DNA of 52,487 nucleotides from Deltaproteobacteria bacterium (GCA_034670305.1 JAXMNT010000052.1:1-52487); one strand, 5' to 3'. Positions 27,263 to 47,216 are shown, counted from the stretch's first letter. The notes: generated by a model from the letters alone, not told the origin. Made by a program: numbers and translations.

Positions 27263-29179
27263 TCAGATGAGCAGGATCTCTTCAAGGTTGAGTCCGGCCG
27301 GGTACGCGTAGCTCGTGAACTGCCCCATGCCGTAGACGATGACGCCGAAGGGATCGGTCGCGAGCATCTGGTGGGTGCCACCTTCGAGCGGCACGATGCC
27401 GACTTCGCGATCGCCGGTCGTCTGCCAGGCGGGGCTGATGCTCGAACCATCGAGTTGGATCTCCTGGCCCGGCGTGCGCACGACGAGCAAGTACGACTGG
27501 CCTTCCGTGCTCGCGTTGTAGCTGGACGGAGTCACGAACGTGTAGTCCGAGCGGAACTGCTCACGGGGCGGCAACACGACCATCGCCGGATCGCCACGAT
27601 CGGCGGGCGGGTCGCTGGCGTTCTGCCCGACCAGGAACTGCGTGACCATGATGGCCTGCGTGCCGTTGACGGTGAACGGGCTCGTGGCGTCGAAGACGGC
27701 CGACTGGCCCTGCGAGAGCATGAGGTTGCTGGTGCCACCCTGGGGCGGATCCACGGTGACCATCGTGCCATCGAATGCGGCCGTGACACGCACCACGTTG
27801 CGGTTGGAAGGACCGGGGTCGCCCATCGGTCCGGAGACGAAGTTGCGGCCCCAGGTCTCGAGCGGCGGCAACTGGTTCTCGAGGTGGTCGCAGGCGAACC
27901 GGTCGTACGGGACGAACGCGCAGTCGTGTCCACCGTAGACCGCGATCGGGTTGTTCGAGGTGACGCGGGAGCCGGTCAGGTCGAACTCTGTCTCGTTGCA
28001 GTAGCGCAGCTCGTTGCTCGTCGGCGATGCCGGGTCCACTCGGTAACCCGGTCGACCGGACGCACACCGGGGCGGCACTGCGGCCGCCACCACGACGACC
28101 TCGCCGCGCTGAATGGTGAAGTTCAAGACCCCGCCGCGGCTGACCGCCGGGAAGCGGCCATCGCTCGCACCCGCGATGTTGGAGTTCGCCACCACCGTCA
28201 CCGTGGTGGGCTCCGGCGTGACGCCGATGATCGCGATGTAGCTCGGGGACGCCGTCTGGATCTCCTGCATGCCGGTGAAGATGTCGTCCACGACCTGGGT
28301 CACCGAGAGCGACGGGAACGAGCTGCCGATGTAGTTGCCGGTGAAGGTGTGGGCCGGCAGGAGCAGCGAGGCGTCGTTCGTGAACGAGAACGTGCCGCCG
28401 ACGTCGTAGTCGAAGGGGTTGAACTCGGTCAGCGTGACCGGACGGTCGCTCACGACGCGGTATGCCGCGTTCGGGACCGCCGGGCTCTGCCAGTTCGGCG
28501 GAGGCGGCGGGTCGAAGGGCGAGGGCGCCATGCCGGGTTCGAACGCCGAGCCGAGCGCCTCGTTCCACGGCAGCGTGATCTGCTGCAGTCCGCCGGGCGG
28601 CACGGTGACCGACATGATCATCGAAGCGCCCTGGAACACGCGCACGTTGGCGGGGCTCGTCGGGTCCGGGTTGGCGGCGACGAGCCGGTAGTCGAAGGTG
28701 TCGCGGTCCAGCGCGCCGTTGGGAAGCGGCGTCGCCCAGTACTCGCAGCCGATGTTGGAGAGGCTGGACTCTGCGGCGCCACAGTCGTCGCCGCAGTACC
28801 CGCTCGAGGTGCAGGTCGAACCGTTCTCGTCGCAGTTGCGGCCGGTCACGAATCCAGAACCATCCGAAGCGCACACCATAGAGACGTTGCCTTCGCAGCG
28901 GCGCTGCCCGGCGGTGCACGCCACGCAGCCCGCGGCTGGGTCACACGCACCGGTGCACATCATCTCGTTGATGTGCGTCATGCCGTCGTCGGCGCATTGG
29001 TAGTAGGTGGCGCCATCGCACGCGAACGCGCCCGGCACACACGCGCCCGGAGGCCCGGTGTCCACCATGCCGGCGTCGTCGCCCCCAGGACCCGTGTCCC
29101 GATTCGGACGTCGATCGTCGTCACCACACCCGATGAGCAACGCGCCCATCGCACAACACACAAGCAAAGTTCCCCGCAT
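27263..29179 (-). CDS. IgGFc-binding-domain lipoprotein
   Basis: Lipobox LIGC; Cys-rich N-terminus; GCEYWA, NDASLLLP, DHLENQLPPLETWG, GDPAM, SYAYPAG motifs. Confidence 0.85.
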   Translation of the reverse strand: MRGTLLVCCAMGALLIGCGDDDRRPNRDTGPGGDDAGMVDTGPPGACVPGAFACDGATYYQCADDGMTHINEMMCTGACDPAAGCVACTAGQRRCEGNVSMVCASDGSGFVTGRNCDENGSTCTSSGYCGDDCGAAESSLSNIGCEYWATPLPNGALDRDTFDYRLVAANPDPTSPANVRVFQGASMIMSVTVPPGGLQQITLPWNEALGSAFEPGMAPSPFDPPPPPNWQSPAVPNAAYRVVSDRPVTLTEFNPFDYDVGGTFSFTNDASLLLPAHTFTGNYIGSSFPSLSVTQVVDDIFTGMQEIQTASPSYIAIIGVTPEPTTVTVVANSNIAGASDGRFPAVSRGGVLNFTIQRGEVVVVAAAVPPRCASGRPGYRVDPASPTSNELRYCNETEFDLTGSRVTSNNPIAVYGGHDCAFVPYDRFACDHLENQLPPLETWGRNFVSGPMGDPGPSNRNVVRVTAAFDGTMVTVDPPQGGTSNLMLSQGQSAVFDATSPFTVNGTQAIMVTQFLVGQNASDPPADRGDPAMVVLPPREQFRSDYTFVTPSSYNASTEGQSYLLVVRTPGQEIQLDGSSISPAWQTTGDREVGIVPLEGGTHQMLATDPFGVIVYGMGQFTSYAYPAGLNLEEILLI

Positions 29180-29460
29180 GGGGCCTCCCAATCCGGTGCA
29201 GGGCACCACCGCCACCCCGCCTACCACGGCGGAAGCTAGTGGATCCCGCCCGCCAGTGCCAACCCCCGACCCAAGTCGGAGAGACTCACTCGGTGGGAGG
29301 AAGCACAACGAGTGACGACCCTCACGAAACCCGCCGCCCGCGCCCCGTGGACCCCAAACGTGCGTTGCGCCACACAGACCCTCCCTCTATCGTCGCGCCG
29401 CTCGGGCACGGCGACTGCGCGCCCGCGCCTGTGGGTCCAAGCGACCGAGAAAGGTGCCCG

Positions 29461-37409: not shown

Positions 37410-37678
37410 TTCTATTTTCCTTGCGCCTACGCAGGCGCCGCTTTTAATTCTGGGTGCGCCTGACTCGGCGCGAGTTGCACCAATGGCGGTGCGGGAGGGT
37501 TTCTGAGGAGGCGGGAGGGTTGCCCTGCAGGCCCACTTCAGAGGGGTGCGGCTCTACCATCAGGTTGGACGGGAGCTCCGCTGTTGGGAAGGTTGTAACC
37601 ACCGAGCGCCCCCGCGTCCAGCCGAGCGCTCAACTTCACGGCCCTCACCACGGCCCACCAACGTGGCAGGATGGGCCG

Positions 37679-38365
37679 ATGCGACTCGTTTCCGCCGCCC
37701 TTGGTGTCCTCGTGGGGTGCGGCGCCAGCGCCGCTCCGCTCTGCCCCGAGCCGGTCGCGCCGCCGCCCGACCCAGCCACTGCGGGGCCCCAGGCTGGGGC
37801 CGAACCGGCCGAGCCCGAACCGTGGGCCATCCGGGGAGAGTGCAACCTCGCCGGCGTCCCCGAGTCGATGCGACAGACGCTGACCGACGAAGAGTCCGAT
37901 GCACTGATCGCGCGGATGCACGAATGGCTCGAGAGCGACTGGCATGGCTTCGCGATCCCGGAGCAGACCGGCATGCTGTTCGCCAAGTCGGAAGACGACA
38001 TCGGCGCCGACCCACCCTACCCGCGCTCGTTCCTCGCCCAGGGTGTGCACGCCTGCAGCCTCGAGGGCGAGTGGCTCCTCGCGGGCATCAAGCAGGCCTT
38101 CCGCCGACACGGCGCCCCCGAGAGCCGAAACGCACCGATCGCCTGTGCCCACAACGTGTGCTGCTACACCGCCCTCGGGGAGTACGACAGCGCCGGCGGC
38201 ATCGTCTTCGCACGCAGCCCAAACGGTTGGCAGGTCCGCGCCGCGTACCAAGCAGCGGACAACGGGACCCTGATGCAAGAGACGATCGACGGGTCCTACC
38301 GGGTGGTGCGTGGACACCTCGAGCGGCTGGCCGAAGAGACCTGCGCCGGCGAACCGGCACCCTGA
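37679..38365 (+). CDS. Hypothetical lipoprotein
   Basis: MRLVSAALGVLVGC lipobox; coding-like composition. Confidence 0.65.
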   Translation: MRLVSAALGVLVGCGASAAPLCPEPVAPPPDPATAGPQAGAEPAEPEPWAIRGECNLAGVPESMRQTLTDEESDALIARMHEWLESDWHGFAIPEQTGMLFAKSEDDIGADPPYPRSFLAQGVHACSLEGEWLLAGIKQAFRRHGAPESRNAPIACAHNVCCYTALGEYDSAGGIVFARSPNGWQVRAAYQAADNGTLMQETIDGSYRVVRGHLERLAEETCAGEPAP

Positions 38366-38417
38366 CCCCAAGCCGTGTGCCAATGAAGAAGTGCATCCAT
38401 CCGCCGTCTCAGCCATC

Positions 38418-38789
38418 ATGGATCTCATGCAGCGACTTCTCCTCCCCGCGCTGGCGCTCGTCTTCGGACTCGCGTCGGGATGCAGCAACGGCGCCGACAA
38501 GGGCTTCTACGAGCTTTGCAGCGACGGAGAATGCATGGGCGGCACCTCGTGCGACACCATCGCGTGGGAGCGTGGCCGGGACGGAGCGATGTGCACCGCC
38601 GACTGCGAATCGGACGCCGACTGCCCGTTCGGCGGGGCCTGCTTCGGCCTCGTGGGCGACCCGGTGGACCAGAAGGTGTGCTTCGCGCGCTGTGACGTCG
38701 ACCGGGATTGCGCAGGTGGCGGGGGCTACGTGTGCGCCGATGCGGAGCTCGAAGGTTCGGTCGTCGCGGGCATCTGTCTTCCACTGTGA
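38418..38789 (+). CDS. Cys-rich lipoprotein, paralogue 1
   Basis: Lipobox ASGC; CTADCESDADC motif; start 38418 or 38427. Confidence 0.72.
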   Translation: MDLMQRLLLPALALVFGLASGCSNGADKGFYELCSDGECMGGTSCDTIAWERGRDGAMCTADCESDADCPFGGACFGLVGDPVDQKVCFARCDVDRDCAGGGGYVCADAELEGSVVAGICLPL

Positions 38790-39130
38790 GCGGGGCGCTG
38801 GTTCGGGCCTCGTTCGCCGTCCTTCTCCTTTGGGGGTGCGCGAACACGCCCCTCTACGCGCCGTGTGACGACGGCAGCGAGTGCGAAGATCCGAGCGACG
38901 GGTGCTACGCGCTGCTCTTCGATCGCAGCGACGGCACCCAGGGCAGCGGCAACGTCTGCTCCCGTCGGTGCGTCACCGACAGCGATTGCCCCGGTGGTCT
39001 CTGCCTCGCTCTGCGCGGTGATCCAAGCGAGACCTTCCTGTGCTTCGAGACCTGCGCGGCCGACCGGTGCTTCGATCCGCATGCGTGTACGCCGCTCGAC
39101 GGAGCCATGGGCAGCGTCTGCCTCCCGTGA
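38786..39130 (+). CDS. Cys-rich lipoprotein, paralogue 2
   Basis: GTGA overlap; lipobox LWGC; CSRRCVTDSDC; same terminal CLP as the upstream gene. Confidence 0.72.
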   Translation: MSGALVRASFAVLLLWGCANTPLYAPCDDGSECEDPSDGCYALLFDRSDGTQGSGNVCSRRCVTDSDCPGGLCLALRGDPSETFLCFETCAADRCFDPHACTPLDGAMGSVCLP

Positions 39131-39148
39131 CCTCCGCGCCGCGCGCGC

Positions 39149-39910
39149 TCAGGCGCCTGGCGGCGCCGCCGTGGCGCGGCGCGCACGGGTCGCGACCGCG
39201 TGCCGCGTGATCTCTTCCGCCTCGACCGCATGATCCGCGTCCACGAGCCCGACGACGACCTCGAGTTCGTTTCCGATCGCGCGCACTTCGGGGTCGCGCC
39301 GGTGCAGACACCACGGGGACAGGAGCAGCGCGCGTCGAATGGCGCGTTTGAGTTCCGGAACCGGTACGACGTCCGGCAACTCGATGCGGAACGTGTGGAG
39401 GTGCGCGTGCTCCACCCGGGTCGAACGGTGCACGACCGAGCGGGTCAGCTTCGAGTAGGGCACGAGGGCCACCGTTCCGTCTGAGGTCTCCACCATCAGA
39501 AGCCGCCATCCGATCTCTGCGATCCGCCCTTCGACCCGGCTCCTCGTGAGTTCGACCTCCACCCGATCGCCGACCCGGAACGCGCCGCCCGAGCGAAGGA
39601 GCAACCCGTCGGCCACGTCGCGGAGTGCGCCCCAGGCGGAGCCGACCACGATGCCGAGCAGCACGAGTGGGACCAGCCACCGGGCCTGTTCGTCCTGCAG
39701 GAGCCACTGCAGCACGAACCCGATGTACAAGAGCATCGCGAGTGCGCCGCCGAGTGGGAGCCACGCACTGACCCGCGCTTCGGTCGTGCGGCTCATCGGC
39801 AAGAGCCGGACCCCCGCACCCACCAGCCGAACCGACCAGGCGAGCAGCACCGCGCCGAGGACAGCCACGAAGACCGTGGCGACTCGGATGAGCCATTCCT
39901 CGACGGTCAC
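39149..39910 (-). CDS. MscS-family mechanosensitive channel-like protein
   Basis: Three TM helices then ALRDVADGLLL...FRVGDRVEV...EGRIAEIGWR...VPYSKL; GTGA overlap with the upstream giant gene. Confidence 0.8.
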   Translation of the reverse strand: MTVEEWLIRVATVFVAVLGAVLLAWSVRLVGAGVRLLPMSRTTEARVSAWLPLGGALAMLLYIGFVLQWLLQDEQARWLVPLVLLGIVVGSAWGALRDVADGLLLRSGGAFRVGDRVEVELTRSRVEGRIAEIGWRLLMVETSDGTVALVPYSKLTRSVVHRSTRVEHAHLHTFRIELPDVVPVPELKRAIRRALLLSPWCLHRRDPEVRAIGNELEVVVGLVDADHAVEAEEITRHAVATRARRATAAPPGA

Positions 39911-42900
39911 AACAGACCCCGCGAACGGAAGTGCGCGACGACCCGGTGTCGCAGGAACGGGTTGAGGGTCGCGCCACGCGAAGGGTGGGAGACCACGAGG
40001 CCGGCGGCACGCAGGGAGCGCACCATCCCGTCCACCACCCGCGCCGGCCGACCCATCACCCGCCGCAAACGCTCGGGCGATGCTTCTTTGTGGATCACGA
40101 GTTGAAGCAACAGCGTTTTGGCGTCCCCGTCGAGCGCGTCGAGTGCGCCCCAGTCGAGCGTGGAAGGCCTCCGGATGGACAGCCCACCGTCTTCTCGGAC
40201 CTGTTCGATGTAGGCGAGCCAACCCCGGAGCGCGCCCGCGATGTTGCCGCCGGTGGCGTCGAAGTGCGCGGAGAAGAGGCGCGCCAGATCCCATTCACCG
40301 AGGCTGGTCTCCGCGTCCTCGCCGAGCTGAAAGGTGAACCCCGTGGAGCGGTGGCGGCGCAAGGTGGCGTGGCGCAGCTCCTCGGCCGAGAACGGATCGC
40401 AGCTCAACACGCTGCTCGCGCTCGCGCTCAGCGCGGTGATTCGATCCAGAAGCTCGAACGCATGTTCGTTGACGCTGACGATGAACCGGAGACGGCGGCC
40501 ATGCTGCTCGACCAGTTCCAGCAACCGGTCGATCACGTCGAGGCCGCCTTCGCGGCGCTCCCACCACAACTCGAGGTCGTCGATGACGACCAACGAACCA
40601 TCCACGAGCCGCGGAAAGAGTTCCTGAGACGAACCCCAGCGCGAGTCGTGACTCAGCGCGCGTTCGAACTCCGCCACCGACACCGAACCGCCCTCGGGCG
40701 ACGGGACCCACACGAGCGCCGGTGGACTGAGCGCGGCGGCGAGTTGCTGCACCGTGGAGGTCTTGCCGGAGCCGGGGTCGCCGACGACGAGCACCAGACC
40801 GCGGTCGGGCACCGCGACTTGGTCGGCGGCGCGCGGCACCCGGAACGGACCACCGGGTGCGCCCCGGCCGAGAAAGAGCTGCTGATAGAACGACGGCAGC
40901 GCTTCGACGACGCTCGGATCAGGGGTCGCCGCCCGCACGAGATCCCGCAACTCGGACTGCGCCGCGGCGCGCTGAGAGACCGAGCGCATCTTCATCGCGA
41001 CGAGCAGGCCGTGCGAGCGCCGGTAGAGCAGCCCGCCCATCAAGCGATGAAGTCCGTCTCGAAGACCGCCGCCCTCGGTGGACTTCGCGCGCCCGATCGA
41101 CTTCTGCATGCGGCCGCTCGCCGCGGTGCGCAGGCTCTCCAGGTCGTACGCGTTGGCCACCGAGGCCAGCGCGGCCATGCCTTCGCGGTTGGCGCGCCGC
41201 AGGCGATCCCGCGCGTCGGTGAGCGCGTTCAGACGTTCTTCCACGACCGCGCGCGCCCGCTCGATGCTCGACTGCAGTGCGTCGTTGTCGGCCTCGCGAT
41301 CGACGCGCTGCTGGAACGCGATCATGTGGCTGAGTTCTTCGAGCGTGGTGCGGGTCTCGTCGCTGACGGCGTGGGCGTGGGTGGTGGCTTCTTCCACCCG
41401 AGAGAGCAGCTCGCGACGGGCGGCCACTTCCACGCCCCGGCGAAGCAGGGTCTCGACTTCTTCGAGTTCGCCGGATCGGCCGAGGTGAAGCAACGCCTCG
41501 TCCGTGCAGGTCGTCAGCCGCTCGGGCAGCTCGTCGGTCGCGTCGGTGATCGATACCGAGAGTTCGTCCAGGTCGGCGCGCGGATCCCAGGAGGCCCGAA
41601 GCGCGCCCACCCCGAACTGTTCGATCGACGCACCTTCCGAGGCGACGCGCTCAAGGGACTCCTGCAGGCGCTCGCTCGCCGCGAACATGTCTCCGACGAC
41701 GTCCTGTTCGAGCGAACGCTGCAGCCGGGAGGCCGCGGTGCGGATCTCGTGCGTCACCGACGCCAACTCGGCACCAAGCGCCGCGCGTTCCGAGAGCAGC
41801 CCGGCCCGTTTCGACCAGTCGGCGAGGGGCGCGTCGAACGCTGCGATCGTGACCTGCCGTTTGCGCGGGATCTTTCGGGACCTGGCCACCTCCTCGACGT
41901 CGAGTCGATCGAGGGTCTCGGAGAACTCGGTCGTCACCCGCCGCGCGTCCCGGAACGCCACCGTCTGGGCGCGGCTGCGACGGGCGCGCAGGTCGCTGCG
42001 AAGCTGTTCGAACTCGTCGCGCGCCGACTCGATGGTGCCCGCGAGTTCTTCGCTCTCGATCGTCGCGAGGGTGCGGCCGAACCGAGACAAGGTCCGTCCG
42101 GTCTCGAGCAGCGCTTGATGGTGGTGCGCGAGTGCGGCGCCGAGGGCCGGCAGGATGGCCGCCCGCACGAACTCTTCGTGGCCCCATCGTTCGAGCACAT
42201 CCATCGGCAACCGGAACTTCACCGGGCCGCGCGAGAACATGCCGCCGCGCTTTCGCCGTTTGACGCGACGCAGCTCGGGGCTGTCTTCGGGCAGCGGTTC
42301 GAGTTCCTCGCGTCGTCGGGCCACGACCACACTCGCGCGGTGTTCGACGAGCCCCGATGGGTCGAGCACTTCGGCAGCGAGCTCCAGTGCCACCCGCTGC
42401 ACCTCGCCGAGCCGCTCCGACGACTCCGCGAGCAGCGACTTCGCCTCTCGCAACCAGTCCGCGACCGCTTCGAGCCGCGCGTCGTGTGCGTCGCCGTCTT
42501 CCGCGGCGTCTCCGAGCGAGACCCGCGGCACGTGCAACGAGGCGATGAGCGATGTCGTGAGCTCGGTGTCGTAGAAGCGGGACGCGGCCCCCTCGAAGAA
42601 CCGGTTCATCGACGCACGCACCCGGGCATCGAACGCCGTCACGAGCTCCGCGAGCGCGGGATGGTCGGGCAGACGCAGTTCCACTGGCGCGTCGCCCTCG
42701 GCGTCCGCTCCGGCCATCGACGGCGGCGGAATGGAACCTGCGCCGTGCGACCCACGCAGACTGCGCTCGAAGAGCGACTGCGGGCGGAACGCGATCACGT
42801 GTCCTTCGATCGACTCGAGGCCAGCGTACGCGCTCAGGGTTCGCGCATCGAGCGCGTCCGGCATCGGCACGAGCACGAGCGCCGACCCGCGCGATTCCTC

Positions 42901-44964
42901 TTCGATCACATCCTGAAAACGAAGCGCCGTGGCTGGCACATGACGGACCTGCACATCCGCCACGAGCCGAGCCTGGCTCACGTACTCGCGCGCTTCGACC
43001 GCCAGGAGATCGTCGCTCGCCGGATCGGTGGTCAAGAGGAACACCCGCATCGGGTGGCGGCGCCAGGTGTCGCTGCGCGAGAGCAGGCGCGCCATCGTGA
43101 CCGCGAACGGCAGGTTGCCGAGTTCGTCGTACCACCAGATGTCGATCGGCGCGCTCGCGTCCAGCTGCGTGCCGGCGCGGTGCACGAGCAACCCATGGTC
43201 CGTGTCGCCGAGCTCCGCCGCGAGTCGCGCGAATCCCTCGCCATCGCCGCGCGCGAACGACCACGGGATCATGACCGTGTTCGGCCGCACGCCACCGAGA
43301 CCGGCGTGCCGCGCCATCGCCGCGATCGTGGGATGGGGCGCATCGGCGAACACGTGTTCGACGAAGAGTCCCGGCGGCGGCTCCTCGCTGTCGTCTTCGC
43401 TGGCTCCCTCAGGCACGGCCCCCGAACCCCGTCCGGGCGACGCGCCTCCCTCCGCGCGCCCGTCGGGATCGTCGCTGTGGATGCGCACATCCGTCGCGAC
43501 GCCCACGTTGCCGATGAGCGCGACGACGAGGTCGGTCAACGCGGGGCTCCGCTCCCCCGACACCTGAGAGAAGGCGAGGATGTTCGGCTTCCAGTTGCGA
43601 AGCTGCGTGCCGACCGTGGCCAAACGCCGCAAGCCCGTGCGCACCAACGACGACCACACCCCCTCCCACGCATCGCCCGAGTCGAGGGTGAGCCGACGCC
43701 GGGAGAGGTAGCCGAACAGCAGCAACATGACGACCATGGCGCCGCCCATGGCGAGGGGATCCAGCTCGAGCATGAGCACGAGGCAGGTGACGGCGCCCAC
43801 GACGCCGATCCACTTCGGGATTCGGAAGCTCGGGCGGAAGTCCGGGCTGACGTAGCTTTCGATCGCGCAGCTGAGGTTGATGAACCCGTAGAGCGCCAAG
43901 AAGACCATCGAGACGACGCGCGCGATGGCGTCGAGTTCGCCGATGAGCACGCCCGCTTCGCCCACGAGGCACGCCAGGATCAGCGCGCGGCGCGGTTCGT
44001 TCGTCAGGCCAGTGCCCTTGGCGAAGAACCGCGGCGTCACACGGTCCCCCGACATCGACTGCAGGATGCGCGGTGCACCGAGGATGCTGCCGAGCGCCGA
44101 GGAGAGTGTCGCGCCCCAGATCCCGAGCACCACGAGCACTTCCCACTTGGCCACGTGCAGGAACAACTCCCCGTCGGAGCGAAGCGCCGAAACCGGCACG
44201 CGGTACGCGAGGTAGATCGTCAACCCGAGGTAGACGAGCAAGCCGGTGGAGATCGCGGCGATGGTGCCGATCGGGATCGCGCGTTTGGGATCCTTCAGAT
44301 CGCCCGACATGTTCACGCCAGCCGTGAAGCCAGTCACCGCGGGGAAAAAGATGCCAAAGAGCACCGCAAGCGACTCGCCCGATGCGGGCGGCTCGAGGTG
44401 CACCTCCAGCGGCGCCTCCGTGTCGCCGAGCGCGATCGACACGATCGAGAGGATGATCGCGACGAGGACGAAGTACTGCGCCTTGATCGCGAGCGACGTG
44501 CTGATGAACGTGATGATCGTCAGCAGCAGGACGGTCGCCGAGCCACACACCCGGATCCAGAAGAGCCGTTTCTCGGCGGTCGAGAGATCGACGGCGTCCA
44601 CATGCGGCGCGATGTACGCGAGAAAACTCTCCGAGAACCCGATCACATACAGGCTGATCGAGAAAGAAAGGCCCACGAAGAGTGCGAGACCGATGGTTCC
44701 GCCGAGCGGGAGGCCAAGGCTTCGAGAGAGCACGTAGTACGGGCCGCCCGCGCCGACCCGTTTGTCGGTGGCGATCGATGAGATGCTCAGACCGGTCGTG
44801 ATCGACACGACGTGGGAGACCAACACGATGCCGATGGCGGCGTAGAGCCCTGCTTCGCCGACCACCTTGGGCAGGCGCAGGTACATGATGACGCCCAAGA
44901 TCGTGAGCACCGAGGGGGTGAACACCCCACCGAACGCCCCGAATTTCTTCGCCGCCGCCGCCAC
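39907..44964 (-). CDS. SLC12/cation-chloride-cotransporter-like permease fused to a C-terminal P-loop NTPase (1685 aa)
   Basis: FGAFGGVFTPSVLTILGVIMYLRL, GGPYYVLSRSLG, FFPAVTGFTAGVNMSGDLKDP, RNWKPNIL, IDIWW; Walker A GDPGSGKTS and Walker B LVVIDD. Confidence 0.88.
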   Translation of the reverse strand: MAAAAKKFGAFGGVFTPSVLTILGVIMYLRLPKVVGEAGLYAAIGIVLVSHVVSITTGLSISSIATDKRVGAGGPYYVLSRSLGLPLGGTIGLALFVGLSFSISLYVIGFSESFLAYIAPHVDAVDLSTAEKRLFWIRVCGSATVLLLTIITFISTSLAIKAQYFVLVAIILSIVSIALGDTEAPLEVHLEPPASGESLAVLFGIFFPAVTGFTAGVNMSGDLKDPKRAIPIGTIAAISTGLLVYLGLTIYLAYRVPVSALRSDGELFLHVAKWEVLVVLGIWGATLSSALGSILGAPRILQSMSGDRVTPRFFAKGTGLTNEPRRALILACLVGEAGVLIGELDAIARVVSMVFLALYGFINLSCAIESYVSPDFRPSFRIPKWIGVVGAVTCLVLMLELDPLAMGGAMVVMLLLFGYLSRRRLTLDSGDAWEGVWSSLVRTGLRRLATVGTQLRNWKPNILAFSQVSGERSPALTDLVVALIGNVGVATDVRIHSDDPDGRAEGGASPGRGSGAVPEGASEDDSEEPPPGLFVEHVFADAPHPTIAAMARHAGLGGVRPNTVMIPWSFARGDGEGFARLAAELGDTDHGLLVHRAGTQLDASAPIDIWWYDELGNLPFAVTMARLLSRSDTWRRHPMRVFLLTTDPASDDLLAVEAREYVSQARLVADVQVRHVPATALRFQDVIEEESRGSALVLVPMPDALDARTLSAYAGLESIEGHVIAFRPQSLFERSLRGSHGAGSIPPPSMAGADAEGDAPVELRLPDHPALAELVTAFDARVRASMNRFFEGAASRFYDTELTTSLIASLHVPRVSLGDAAEDGDAHDARLEAVADWLREAKSLLAESSERLGEVQRVALELAAEVLDPSGLVEHRASVVVARRREELEPLPEDSPELRRVKRRKRGGMFSRGPVKFRLPMDVLERWGHEEFVRAAILPALGAALAHHHQALLETGRTLSRFGRTLATIESEELAGTIESARDEFEQLRSDLRARRSRAQTVAFRDARRVTTEFSETLDRLDVEEVARSRKIPRKRQVTIAAFDAPLADWSKRAGLLSERAALGAELASVTHEIRTAASRLQRSLEQDVVGDMFAASERLQESLERVASEGASIEQFGVGALRASWDPRADLDELSVSITDATDELPERLTTCTDEALLHLGRSGELEEVETLLRRGVEVAARRELLSRVEEATTHAHAVSDETRTTLEELSHMIAFQQRVDREADNDALQSSIERARAVVEERLNALTDARDRLRRANREGMAALASVANAYDLESLRTAASGRMQKSIGRAKSTEGGGLRDGLHRLMGGLLYRRSHGLLVAMKMRSVSQRAAAQSELRDLVRAATPDPSVVEALPSFYQQLFLGRGAPGGPFRVPRAADQVAVPDRGLVLVVGDPGSGKTSTVQQLAAALSPPALVWVPSPEGGSVSVAEFERALSHDSRWGSSQELFPRLVDGSLVVIDDLELWWERREGGLDVIDRLLELVEQHGRRLRFIVSVNEHAFELLDRITALSASASSVLSCDPFSAEELRHATLRRHRSTGFTFQLGEDAETSLGEWDLARLFSAHFDATGGNIAGALRGWLAYIEQVREDGGLSIRRPSTLDWGALDALDGDAKTLLLQLVIHKEASPERLRRVMGRPARVVDGMVRSLRAAGLVVSHPSRGATLNPFLRHRVVAHFRSRGLL

Positions 44965-45057
44965 GGCGCGAGGTTACCCCACTATGGCGGGCCGCATGGG
45001 GGAGGTTTCGCGGCGCCCGGTAGTGACAAACGAGCCGCGGACCGGTACCTCAAGAGC

Positions 45058-45867
45058 ATGCTTCGAACCACTTCGCTCTCGCTTGGCACGCTCCTTCTCC
45101 TCTTGGCGTGCGGCGGCGACGACGACGCGACCATCGATGCCGGGGGCGACGTGGGCGGGGGCGAAGACGCAGGGCTGGACAGTGCCCCGGCCGAGGACGT
45201 GCCCGTGGCGGCCTGTGATCTCGACGACGTCGTCACGTTCCTCACGTCCGATGGCGTGCAGCTCGAGGCGTTCGCGCAGCTCGCCGGCCCCGACGCCCCA
45301 GCCGTGGTGCTCTTCCACATGGTCCCGCCGGGCAACAACCGCTCGAACTACAGCGCCGCGTTCCGGAACGAGCTCTTCTCGAACGGCTGGTCGGTGCTCA
45401 ACGTCGATCGACGCGGCGCGGGCGGTTCCGACGGAGTGGCGCGGGAAGCCTACGAAGGACCGGGCGGCGCGCTCGACGTCGCCGCGGCCACCGAGTTCCT
45501 GCGAGGTACCGGCTGCGTGGACATGACGAAGCTCGCGATCATCGGCGCGAGCAACGGCACCACCAGCGTGCTCGACGGCATCGTGGCCGGCGGCATCGAA
45601 CCGGCCACCGTCGTCTTTCTCTCCGGGGGCAGCTACACGGTGAACCAGAACCCAATCGACAGCGCCGCGCTGGCGACCGTGCCGGTGCTCTTTGCGTGGT
45701 CCGATGGCGACACGCCTTCAGCTACTTGGAACGTCGCGGTCCGCGACGGCCGTCCCGGCGAGTGGTTGTTCAACAACCGCGCGGGGGATGCCCACGGCAC
45801 GATGCTGCTGGCCGACGACGACGCGCGGGGCGCGGTGATCGCCTGGCTTGGGGCGTCTCTCCGGTAG
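45058..45867 (+). CDS. Alpha/beta hydrolase lipoprotein
   Basis: Lipobox LLAC; D.RGAG.S, IGASNG elbow, C-terminal AHGT. Confidence 0.78.
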   Translation: MLRTTSLSLGTLLLLLACGGDDDATIDAGGDVGGGEDAGLDSAPAEDVPVAACDLDDVVTFLTSDGVQLEAFAQLAGPDAPAVVLFHMVPPGNNRSNYSAAFRNELFSNGWSVLNVDRRGAGGSDGVAREAYEGPGGALDVAAATEFLRGTGCVDMTKLAIIGASNGTTSVLDGIVAGGIEPATVVFLSGGSYTVNQNPIDSAALATVPVLFAWSDGDTPSATWNVAVRDGRPGEWLFNNRAGDAHGTMLLADDDARGAVIAWLGASLR

Positions 45868-45911: not shown

Positions 45912-47216
45912 ATGAGTTACCAGCTTGTGTTGACCGCGGTGTTCATCGTGCTCAACGGATTCTTCGTCGCGGCGGAGTTCGCGCTGGTCAAGACCCGGCC
46001 GAGTCGGGTCAAGGCGCTCGCCGCCCAAGGCGACCCACGCGCCAAGCGCCTGCTCGTGATGACGGAGGAACTCGACCTCTACCTGTCCGCCTGCCAGCTC
46101 GGCATCACCATCGCCAGCCTGGTGCTCGGCTACCTCGCCGAGCCGGCGTTCGCCGAGCTGATCTCCAACGGCGCGGTGGCGCTCGGTCTGGCCGTGCCCG
46201 AGAGCACCGTCCTGCACATCGTGGCGTTCGGTGCTGCGCTCGTCATCGTCACCATCCTCCACATGGTGCTCGGCGAACAGGCACCGAAGATCTGGGCCAT
46301 TCACAGCGCCGAAAAGGCCGCGCTCCGGTTCTCCCTCATCCTCCGCATCTTCACGATGGTGCTTCGGCCGCTCATCGTGGTCGTCAACAGCATGTCGAAC
46401 GGGCTGCTCCGCATCTCGGGCGTCGAGGGCGGACACGGATCGGGCGAACACGACGCCCGCGAGCTGAAAGCGATCATCGGCGCCGCAGCCATGGCGGGGA
46501 ACATCTCGACGCGGCAGCGTCTGTTCGCCGAGAACATCATCGACCTGGTCGAGCTGGAGGTCCGCCACATCATGCTGCCGCGGACCCAGGTGGCGTACCT
46601 GGACTCCAACGATCCCGTGGCCAAGAGCCTCGCGCGCATTCGGGCCGAAGGTCATTCCCGCTGGCCGCTCGCCAACGGTGACCTCGACGACGTGGTCGGC
46701 ATCGTGCTCGCGCGCGACGTGCTCGAGCAGCTCATCGACGAGCTGCCACTCGACCTGGAACAGATCTCCCGGCCGCCTCACTTCGTGCCCGACACCCAGC
46801 CGCTCGCGCGCTTCATCGTGGAGAGTCAGCAGACCGGTCATCAAGGCGCGCTGGTGGTCGACGAACACGGCACCGTGGTCGGCATGGCCTTTCTCGAGGA
46901 CGCGCTGGAGGAGATCGTCGGACCTTTGCACGACGAACGCGACGCGATCGAGTCCATCGTCGACCAAGGCGACGAAGGCGTGATCGAGATGCGCGGCTCC
47001 CTCGATCTGCCCGAAGCCAGCCACCTGCTCGGCGTCGAGTTCGGCGACGCGCACGACACGATCGGCGGCGTCTTGATCGCCAAGCTCGGCCGCCTGCCGC
47101 GCAAGGGGGACGTCGTCACACTGGAAGGCTACGACGCACTCGTCGTCCGAACCGGCCGCGGCCGAAGCATCCAGACCGTCCGCTTCACGCCGACCCAGAC
47201 CGAAGACGAAGACTGA
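45912..47216 (+). CDS. CNNM/CBS/CorC-HlyC (hemolysin-family) transporter-associated protein
   Basis: NGFFVAAEFALV, QLGIT, LGEQAPK, IMLPRT, HSRWP, VVDEHG, EDALEEIVG, TIGG. Confidence 0.9.
   Translation: MSYQLVLTAVFIVLNGFFVAAEFALVKTRPSRVKALAAQGDPRAKRLLVMTEELDLYLSACQLGITIASLVLGYLAEPAFAELISNGAVALGLAVPESTVLHIVAFGAALVIVTILHMVLGEQAPKIWAIHSAEKAALRFSLILRIFTMVLRPLIVVVNSMSNGLLRISGVEGGHGSGEHDARELKAIIGAAAMAGNISTRQRLFAENIIDLVELEVRHIMLPRTQVAYLDSNDPVAKSLARIRAEGHSRWPLANGDLDDVVGIVLARDVLEQLIDELPLDLEQISRPPHFVPDTQPLARFIVESQQTGHQGALVVDEHGTVVGMAFLEDALEEIVGPLHDERDAIESIVDQGDEGVIEMRGSLDLPEASHLLGVEFGDAHDTIGGVLIAKLGRLPRKGDVVTLEGYDALVVRTGRGRSIQTVRFTPTQTEDED

Follow-up and report, generated by a model that had tools for sequence, protein, structure and literature searches.

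How cells sense their volume or turgor and relay it to their salt transporters is a long-standing question, and to our knowledge the bacterial homologues of the cation-chloride cotransporters (CCCs; SLC12 family) are almost unstudied. The question is raised by a locus in a DNA stretch of 52,487 nucleotides from Deltaproteobacteria bacterium (GCA_034670305.1 JAXMNT010000052.1:1-52487; "the window" refers to this whole stretch). Here, one open frame on the minus strand (39907..44964) encodes a protein of 1685 amino acids (aa) that joins a CCC transporter, helical bundles, an AAA+ ATPase and a winged helix, and it is followed by a minus-strand gene (39149..39910) for a 253-aa protein of the MscS family (PF00924), with three transmembrane (TM) helices, a beta domain and an alpha/beta domain. 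What, then, binds a salt cotransporter, a nucleotide-binding module and a channel relative together? Judged from sequence comparison across many genomes, the conserved core is the AAA+/winged-helix module plus its MscS-like partner, whereas the head can be exchanged, the CCC being one of two or more types. The reading preferred here, which we regard as evenly poised, is that the fused transporter would be controlled by a nucleotide-switch module acting together with a dedicated MscS-type partner.

The fusion gene runs from a CCC/SLC12 transmembrane domain with 12 predicted TM helices (aa 1-445, 43630..44964; matches to PF00324, TIGR00930 and KCC/NKCC1) and the SLC12 cytoplasmic C-terminal domain (aa ~446-745, end approximate, 42730..43629; KCC4/KCC2 alignment to aa 676), through a tandem pair of long four-helix bundles that contain small beta inserts (aa ~746-1340, 40945..42729; AlphaFold model), to the AAA+ ATPase base and lid (aa ~1341-1600, 40165..40944; model and structural matches) and a winged-helix domain (aa ~1601-1685, 39910..40164; MarR-type matches to the model), all on the minus strand. 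The translation places a Walker A motif, GDPGSGKT, at aa 1395-1402 (40759..40782, minus strand) and a Walker B region, LVVIDDLE, at aa 1458-1465 (40570..40593, minus strand), which is then followed by LWWE. The 3' end of the gene reads ...CTG TTG TGA, and the GTG start of the partner gene overlaps the stop codon as GTGA (39907..39910, minus strand). An initial annotation, made from the sequence alone, had described an open reading frame (ORF) of this length with the same domain order (SLC12 transmembrane domain, cytosolic domain, helical part, NTPase), both Walker motifs at these places, a possible winged-helix tail, and a stop/start overlap with a short MscS-like gene. All of this was borne out, and the NTPase, whose class had been left to a structure search, proved to be AAA+, of the ORC/Cdc6- or STAND-like kind (STAND, signal transduction ATPases with numerous domains). 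The GC content at third codon positions of the fusion ORF (0.86; window GC, 68%) gives the codon-position GC pattern of a genuine gene. A single contig spans positions 39000-45100 in three public runs, with zero differences and zero joints; because these runs are possibly the source of the window DNA, they give no independent support.

The fusion is neither an artefact nor unique to this genome, and it is widespread across phyla. One genome per species was scanned with the motif [DH]D[LA]E[LM]WWE, which yielded 190 stretches and 184 confirmed relatives; the locus counts rest on the best 80 of these 184. According to their titles, the 80 loci belong to Bacteroidota (37), Myxococcota/'delta' (30), Calditrichota (4), Melioribacteraceae (1) and Latescibacterota (1), with seven vague titles, and there is one cultured carrier, Paraliomyxa miuraensis SMH-27-4 (L029). 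The CCC N-terminus was found upstream in 72/80 loci (tblastn), the other eight being cut by a contig end, and 63/80 loci hold an uninterrupted ORF of 1630-1810 aa; other loci are contig-cut or interrupted, and in L013 an open frame upstream lengthens the ORF. When residues 1250-1685 were used as query, 38 proteins were retrieved, 35 of which (the window's own included) are 1637-1740 aa long and carry PF00324, the remaining three being truncated calls. As candidates for a stand-alone module, P0040 was rejected since it starts inside the C-terminal domain, which makes it a truncated gene call, and P0014 since it is cut by a contig end; for P0023 (= L021), the N-terminal part lies upstream in another frame, probably through a frameshift. 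Public names of the fusion proteins are 'amino acid transporter', 'amino acid permease' and 'hypothetical protein'. When 1.84 billion representative proteins were scored with a C-terminal-module profile, the matches numbered 3782 (E<=1e-3), 2901 (E<=1e-10) and 1123 (E<=1e-30).

The MscS-like gene is likewise a conserved neighbour. It lies directly downstream on the same strand in 71/77 evaluable loci (three further loci reach a contig end) with at least five phylum labels, as counted with a partner hidden Markov model (HMM) that was seeded from the downstream ORFs themselves. Two checks that are independent of this HMM are available: the window partner matched 69/80 loci by tblastn, 66 of them directly downstream, and PF00924 matches 70/71 of the partner orthologues. 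In two loci (L035 and L064), the partner lies 1.3-2.3 kb farther on. A start 3 nucleotides before the stop, as in the window, is inferred for 41 of the 71 adjacent pairs (42/73 by an alternative start rule), and there is no other conserved neighbour among the 80 loci, the largest flank cluster covering 12/80 and being clade-specific. Pairwise distances of module and partner are correlated with r 0.93 (58 loci; 0/999 permutations), a co-variation that is read as joint inheritance of module and partner and nothing more. The co-occurrence that the initial annotation asked for was therefore found, and its proposal of a two-gene unit stands as far as linkage is concerned; its scope does not, since the core is the AAA+/winged-helix module plus partner and the CCC head is exchangeable, as set out below.

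Some Bacteroidales loci show further arrangements of MscS-family genes around the fusion. In several, a second, more distant MscS-family gene (partner HMM, E 1e-9 to 1e-18) occupies the opposite strand downstream of the partner, either directly after it (L020:7559-8404, L032:7681-8241, L036:4336-5181, L045:8861-9703 and L069:8860-9711, all minus strand) or ~3 kb further downstream (L054:5133-5981, minus strand); this second gene is part of an 8-locus flank cluster. In L035, a 760-aa ORF (L035:8031-10313, plus strand) lies between the fusion gene and the partner, which is 2.3 kb downstream. In L053, the C-terminal half of an MscS-like partner is found ~2.5 kb upstream of the fusion at the locus edge (L053:2-361, plus strand); the downstream side of this locus is cut by a contig end, and the related loci L037, L052 and L074 have no partner.

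That the head can be exchanged became apparent when the module profile was run against 80 genomes from the same family. The matches fell into two tiers: a strong tier (E<=1e-114; ORFs of 1644-1703 aa) in four genomes including this one, and a weaker tier (E ~1e-21 to 1e-25; mostly ORFs of ~1530 aa) in 39 other genomes. The protein of locus L083 has a Na_H_Exchanger domain at residues 38-430 followed by the same tail, with an MscS-like gene directly downstream, and its relatives form at least 172 clusters, nearly all of ~1500 aa with PF00999 and publicly named cation:proton antiporter (CPA) or KefB. Alignment of the CCC type with this antiporter type by hhalign covers 912 columns (probability 99.9, E 7e-37), from just after the CCC C-terminal domain to the protein end, from which it follows that the whole ~930-aa module is common to both types. 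The antiporter-type cassette thus resembles the CCC type in its ~930-aa module and downstream MscS-like gene, and differs from it in its CPA Na+/H+-exchanger head (PF00999), degenerate-looking ATPase motifs, and a larger partner that belongs to a separate lineage. Headless proteins of 873-1199 aa share the AAA+/winged-helix part only (hhalign, E 4e-15 over 298 columns); their N-terminal side has a signal-peptide-like start, an acidic or coiled region and 3-5 TM helices. In all 21 antiporter-type or headless loci examined, an MscS-like gene lies directly downstream on the same strand, with heads verified by Pfam for four antiporter-type and three headless loci and assigned for the others from ORF length and the list of L083 relatives.

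All three cassettes occur in the window's own genome, each with its own partner: C52 (CCC, the locus described here), C14 (antiporter head) and C12 (headless). C14 has a 2013-aa frame (L111:5971-12009, minus strand; Na_H_Exchanger at residues 542-925, module E 5e-17) with the MscS-like gene directly downstream (L111:4628-6250, minus strand; E 1.5e-19). C12 encodes a 1199-aa protein without a transporter head (L085:4413-8009, minus strand), in which a long N-terminal non-cytoplasmic-looking region and three TM helices precede the AAA+/winged-helix core, and its MscS-like gene is likewise directly downstream (L085:3591-4409, minus strand). Besides these partners, the genome encodes eight further MscS paralogues. 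A quick, unrooted tree places the partners in type-specific groups (CCC 100, CPA 98, headless 99). Elements common to all cassettes, as far as their sequences tell, are a membrane anchor, an AAA+/winged-helix switch and a cognate MscS-like protein. Because switch and MscS-like oligomer are common to all cassettes, they would work together, probably by direct contact.

These comparisons bear directly on a simpler explanation, namely that the two genes serve independent, co-expressed functions: the CCC would import salt, the MscS-like protein would be an ordinary emergency valve, and the AAA+ module would regulate only its own transporter and leave the channel alone, for instance as a sensor of ATP/ADP or as a driver of oligomerisation. 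This is unlikely in our view. Since uptake and release serve the same physiology, co-expression alone could explain the linkage, and the co-variation of distances is expected for any two linked genes. However, the pairing survives the swap or loss of the head, headless versions have no transporter to regulate and still keep the partner, and each cassette type keeps its own partner lineage despite the eight other MscS paralogues in the genome. The 4-nucleotide overlap of so many pairs also suggests matched production of the two proteins, which argues against merely parallel functions.

Returning to the control of the fused transporter by module and partner, the transporter head itself appears to be intact. 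AA_permease (PF00324) matches residues 14-420 (Pfam, E 8e-43), and the K-Cl cotransporter model TIGR00930 (NCBIfam) matches with E 2.6e-111 and 373 bits, below a curated cut-off of 953 bits that was set for full-length eukaryotic proteins. Among proteins of known structure, human KCC4 is the best match, covering residues 3-182 and 198-676 (E 1.9e-74), followed by KCC1-3 (E 1e-71 to 1e-73), NKCC1 (~1e-65) and NCC (~1e-53). The Pfam SLC12 family (PF03522) matches the window protein with E 0.053 and is precomputed for 9/38 relatives. Despite this weak match, the fusion is judged to contain a complete CCC, with TM domain and SLC12 C-terminal domain, because the KCC4 alignment continues through the C-terminal domain; alignment of that domain to KCC4/KCC2 covers residues 450-676 plus a weak stretch at 678-703. 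A hydropathy scan found 12 hydrophobic segments in the head, and there is no N-terminal cytoplasmic tail, the protein starting ~7 residues before TM1.

With respect to transported ions, the TM8 segment of the window protein, GIWGATLSSALGS, corresponds to human NKCC1 GIFSATLSSALAS, and the motif ATLSSAL is identical between the two. This segment scores better with NKCC1 (E 2.6e-10) and NCC than with the KCCs (~2e-5), which have STCGAGLQS there; A285, S288 and S289 align to human NKCC1 A610, S613 and S614. Invariant in 22 full-length relatives are G24-V25-I26, Y106, P208, T211, G212, A285, S288, S289 and Y359, as well as Thr21, which replaces the Asn of the K+ site. We take G24-V25-I26, G212 and Y359 to be ion-site positions, as matched by eye rather than by direct alignment to zebrafish NKCC1 (DrNKCC1), and Y106, P208 and T211 are presumably K+-site positions. 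According to a review that uses DrNKCC1 numbers (PMC9784483), the Na+ site of NKCC1 consists of two TM1 carbonyls, one Ala and two Ser on TM8, and the Cl- sites consist of the TM1 GVM stretch and of the TM6 GIL stretch with a TM10 Tyr; A285, S288 and S289 were matched to its A535, S538 and S539. Because the ion-site positions are invariant and TM8 is NKCC-like, the head is predicted probably to carry out Na+-coupled Cl- cotransport, with or without K+.

Compared with the animal CCCs (NKCC1, NCC, KCC1-4; SLC12, TC 2.A.30), the fusion shares the 12-TM APC fold and the C-terminal domain over residues 3-676 (E 1e-53 to 1e-74). Unlike them, it is without an N-terminal regulatory tail, has Thr21 for the K+-site Asn, and carries a 930-aa AAA+ extension together with an MscS partner. 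In animals, CCC activity is under the control of WNK-SPAK/OSR1 phosphorylation; no comparable feature was seen in the fusion. Among prokaryotes, a crystal structure of MaCCC's C-terminal domain (Methanosarcina acetivorans) was reportedly determined by Warmuth et al. in 2009. As far as the mentions of it in citing papers go, MaCCC is likewise a prokaryotic CCC with an SLC12 C-terminal domain, and the difference is that this work concerns an isolated C-terminal domain, with an AAA+ extension or MscS pairing unmentioned there. In the parts of the literature covered, this isolated domain structure of 2009 was the only prokaryotic CCC, and no CCC is listed in the part of a Myxococcus transporter census that was available.

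Control of a CCC by nucleotides has a precedent. According to PMC8280820, the C-terminal domains of animal KCC1 and NKCC1 bind ATP/ADP in a universal stress protein (USP)-like fold that resembles an osmoregulatory transporter subunit of a halophile; to regard CCCs as unconnected with nucleotides is therefore too strong. The same finding can be turned in favour of independent functions, as the animal domains described there respond to nucleotides without a channel partner.

Between the transporter and the ATPase, the AlphaFold model of residues 745-1345 (63 sequences; predicted local distance difference test score, pLDDT, 86.1; predicted template modelling score, pTM, 0.81) shows two tandem bundles of helices of 40-70 residues, each with a small two-stranded insert. 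Foldseek gave no match of this region to the PDB at E<=0.001, and the ESM Atlas search gave no usable match. VIA-align returned generic four-helix bundles only. A designed bundle reached Z 14.6, whereas ligand domains of sensor kinases and chemoreceptors, like talin rods, scored Z 9-11, a level that counts as noise among helical proteins. Conservation of the fusion per 50-aa bin is 0.5-0.9 in the TM domain, 0.3-0.4 in the helical middle and 0.45-0.57 in the ATPase. Our reading of the model is that the middle region, which falls into no known family, may serve as a rigid spacer or in transmission.

The C-terminal module (model of residues 1300-1685, pLDDT 92.7) comprises an AAA+ base, a lid and a MarR-like winged helix. 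Foldseek matches reach E 5.6e-9, the top ones being RuvB, ORC/Cdc6 and the archaeal ATPase SSO1545. In an all-against-representatives structural search, Cdc6/Orc1 2qby_A ranks first (Z 13.7, 270 residues aligned), followed at Z 11-13 by TnsC, clamp loaders, MuB, PABY2304, NLRP2 and Avs proteins, and the archaeal ATPases 2qen and 2fna and NSF-D2 are also among the neighbours; overall, the fold matches reach Z 11-13.7 across 200-280 residues. The tail (model residues 304-385) superposes on MarR-type chains with Z ~11 and a root-mean-square deviation of 1.9-2.5. Pfam matches among 63 members include AAA_16 (45), AAA_22 (41), nSTAND3 (14) and BrxC_BrxD (12), and the window protein matches PF00004 with 22.2 bits (cut-off 21.2). 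Judged from the model, the module is the three-domain core of initiator or STAND-type switches. GK[ST] of Walker A is intact in 60/63 members; D1463, E1465, W1467, W1468 and E1469 are conserved in 63/63 and the Leu of DLE in 62/63; in the lid, R1537 (63/63), H1538 (62/63) and N1499 (47/63) are kept; an FxVxR..E motif lies ahead of the P-loop. The winged-helix tally covered H1625 and K1626, and H1625, which may resemble the histidine of the STAND 'MHD' motif, is kept in 60/63.

With ORC/Cdc6, the archaeal PF01637-type ATPases (2fna, 2qen) and STAND proteins (AAA_16, NACHT, NB-ARC), the module shares the order of base, lid and winged helix and a Walker B of type hhhhDDL-W. Unlike these, it is tethered to a transporter by two four-helix bundles and is without a sensor repeat or a DNA-replication context, and except for PF00004 the window protein falls below every curated Pfam cut-off. 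Since no C-terminal sensor repeats (TPR, WD40, LRR) follow the winged helix, where the protein ends, the module is not filed as a canonical STAND protein.

Such a fold raises the possibility that the AAA+ and winged-helix domains bind DNA as in ORC/Cdc6, in which case the fusion, tethered to the membrane, would regulate transcription or anchor the chromosome and would report ion status. DNA-bound Cdc6/Orc1 is indeed the top structural match, the tail superposes on DNA-binding domains of MarR type, and there are weak Pfam matches to TrmB and MarR_2. We nevertheless consider this explanation extremely improbable, as there is no conserved operator-like repeat or target gene beside the 80 loci, and winged helices in STAND/AAA+ modules commonly pack on the nucleotide site, not on DNA.

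The module might also serve the assembly, insertion or quality control of either the MscS-like oligomer or the transporter. Many AAA+ proteins remodel or load complexes, and clamp loaders, TnsC, MuB and NSF-D2 are among its structural neighbours; translational coupling would fit a chaperone-client pair as well. A role of this kind is nonetheless very unlikely, given a single AAA+ domain with a winged helix, an hhhhDDLE-WW signature that is typical of switches and initiators, not unfoldases, and ATPase motifs that look degenerate in the antiporter type.

The STAND-like features recorded above (AAA_16 45/63, nSTAND3 14/63, BrxC_BrxD 12/63), together with a patchy distribution within the family, could point to anti-phage abortive infection, in which the NTPase senses infection and opens transporter and channel so that the cell collapses. 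A comparable case may be Tmn, a transmembrane P-loop NTPase that is reported, in the available part of the source, to defend by Mg2+ export (10.64898/2026.03.01.708804). Against PADLOC-DB v2, however, the fusion gave only matches of P-loop length, about 30 and up to 45 residues around the P-loop (mad8, E 1e-5; TRIP13, BrxF and IetA, E ~1e-3), and no full-length defence match, and the partner gave no match at all. The adjacent genes have housekeeping roles, the 80 loci have no defence-island or mobile-element neighbour in common, the ion sites show the strict conservation of a working cotransporter, and the missing sensor repeat speaks against an infection sensor of this type. Abortive infection is thus a highly improbable function.

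The partner matches PF00924 with E 3.7e-9 and 37 bits (cut-off 20.2), and its orthologues are 232-292 aa long. Because its family profile aligns to E. coli MscS residues 28-238 (E 1e-14), which span TM1-TM3 and the beta and alpha/beta domains, it is classed by homology as a minimal but complete MscS-family protein. It shares these domains and the conserved G121 position with the MscS family (E. coli MscS, YnaI, MscK). Unlike MscS, it is minimal, has W and D at the Q112 and N117 places, has a bulky TM3a, and is encoded behind the gene of an AAA+/winged-helix module.

Taken together, the control of the fused transporter by a nucleotide switch and a dedicated MscS-type partner could proceed as follows. 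The MscS-like protein would be made from the same message as the fusion by translational coupling, and its oligomer would report membrane tension or turgor. The AAA+/winged-helix module would act as a nucleotide-dependent switch that associates with this oligomer, its state being set by ATP/ADP binding, and the helical bundles would relay that state to the transporter C-terminal domain. Salt uptake by the CCC and solute release by the channel could thereby be coordinated under osmotic or ionic stress, with the fused transporter as the controlled output and the channel possibly as a second output. We infer that module and partner touch, which way the signal runs, which ions are carried and that ATP is hydrolysed, and likewise the physical two-gene complex and the link to membrane tension that had been envisaged from the start.

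Several observations weigh against this proposal. At the level of the module, the Walker A lysine is missing in 3/63 members, the first acidic position of Walker B (1462) is D in 33 and H in 30 of 63, no conserved arginine finger was evident by eye (untallied) between beta4 and beta5 in the 63 members, and the antiporter-type consensus motifs GxDGVGKA and VVVDGLHW look degenerate; the AAA+ module may therefore not cycle as an ATPase in all members. At the level of the partner, a nearly invariant Trp and Asp occupy the places of E. coli MscS Q112 and N117 by manual position count (W94 and D99 in the window's partner, numbered from 39913, one codon before the GTG), and the TM3a consensus is bulky-hydrophobic, not Gly/Ala-rich, with some Gly kept in the window protein. 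Because of these features an altered pore is suspected, i.e., the partner may not be a conventional channel and its pore may differ from that of MscS. In addition, the three partner lineages do not come together in the quick tree as a group apart from ordinary MscS paralogues, so a single clade of all partners was not retained, and the eight other paralogues of the genome group with the headless-type partners (support 88). Four of the 77 evaluable loci (L037, L038, L052 and L074) have no partner in the fetched DNA, and the CCC-type orthologue is patchy, being found in 4/80 genomes of the same family including this one, which fits an accessory function. Lastly, the binding of the module to the partner is at present wholly conjectural.

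A known system with a comparable layout is that of KefC/KefB with KefF/KefG, which mediates regulated K+ efflux; its transporter carries a regulatory domain as a cytoplasmic fusion, and an ancillary subunit is encoded with it. The fusion resembles it as a secondary cation transporter with a fused regulator and a co-encoded partner. It differs in that no KTN/RCK (TrkA_N) domain is among the Pfam matches of the window protein at E <= 0.1, the regulator being AAA+/winged-helix and the partner a membrane protein of the MscS family. Full-text searches of the literature found no description of a CCC-AAA+ fusion or of its pairing with MscS, in keeping with the initial view that the architecture is uncharacterised. 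The individual domains come from known families; it is their system-level arrangement that appears to be undescribed.

More generally, though this is somewhat less likely than not, the cassettes could form a hitherto unrecognised modular device of bacteria for mechano- and osmo-regulation, in which a membrane-anchored AAA+/winged-helix switch docks on its own MscS-family oligomer and controls interchangeable heads via rigid bundles, the head being an NKCC-like CCC here and a Na+/H+ exchanger in the sister cassettes. If so, prokaryotes would have an equivalent of the kinases through which animal CCCs respond to cell volume, and the gene for the tension sensor would sit right beside it. The family would then offer a small genetic unit that hard-wires a tension-sensitive channel relative to a nucleotide switch and a cotransporter. 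As switch and partner are reused with other heads, the coupling could be dissected by domain swaps, and the family could provide structural biology with a bacterial full-length CCC that has a built-in regulator.

The surroundings of the fusion in the window consist of housekeeping genes, such as those for RNase R, thymidine phosphorylase, glycine dehydrogenase and CorC. A promoter scan found no sigma-70-like site at the locus, a scan that is uninformative for a GC-rich organism. The interval from RNase R to the partner gene contains three candidate ORFs on the plus strand that overlap one another (37454-38362, 38310-38786 and 38708-39127), none with a Pfam match. Two genes away from the fusion and divergent from it, a CNNM/CorC-type ion-homeostasis gene (45912-47213, plus strand; CNNM, CBS and CorC_HlyC domains) is present, which is not a conserved neighbour in other fusion loci. 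Further away (27266-29386, minus strand), the window encodes a 707-aa protein with an IgGFc_binding domain (PF17517, E 1.3e-68), a family name that is better known from animal mucin-like proteins.

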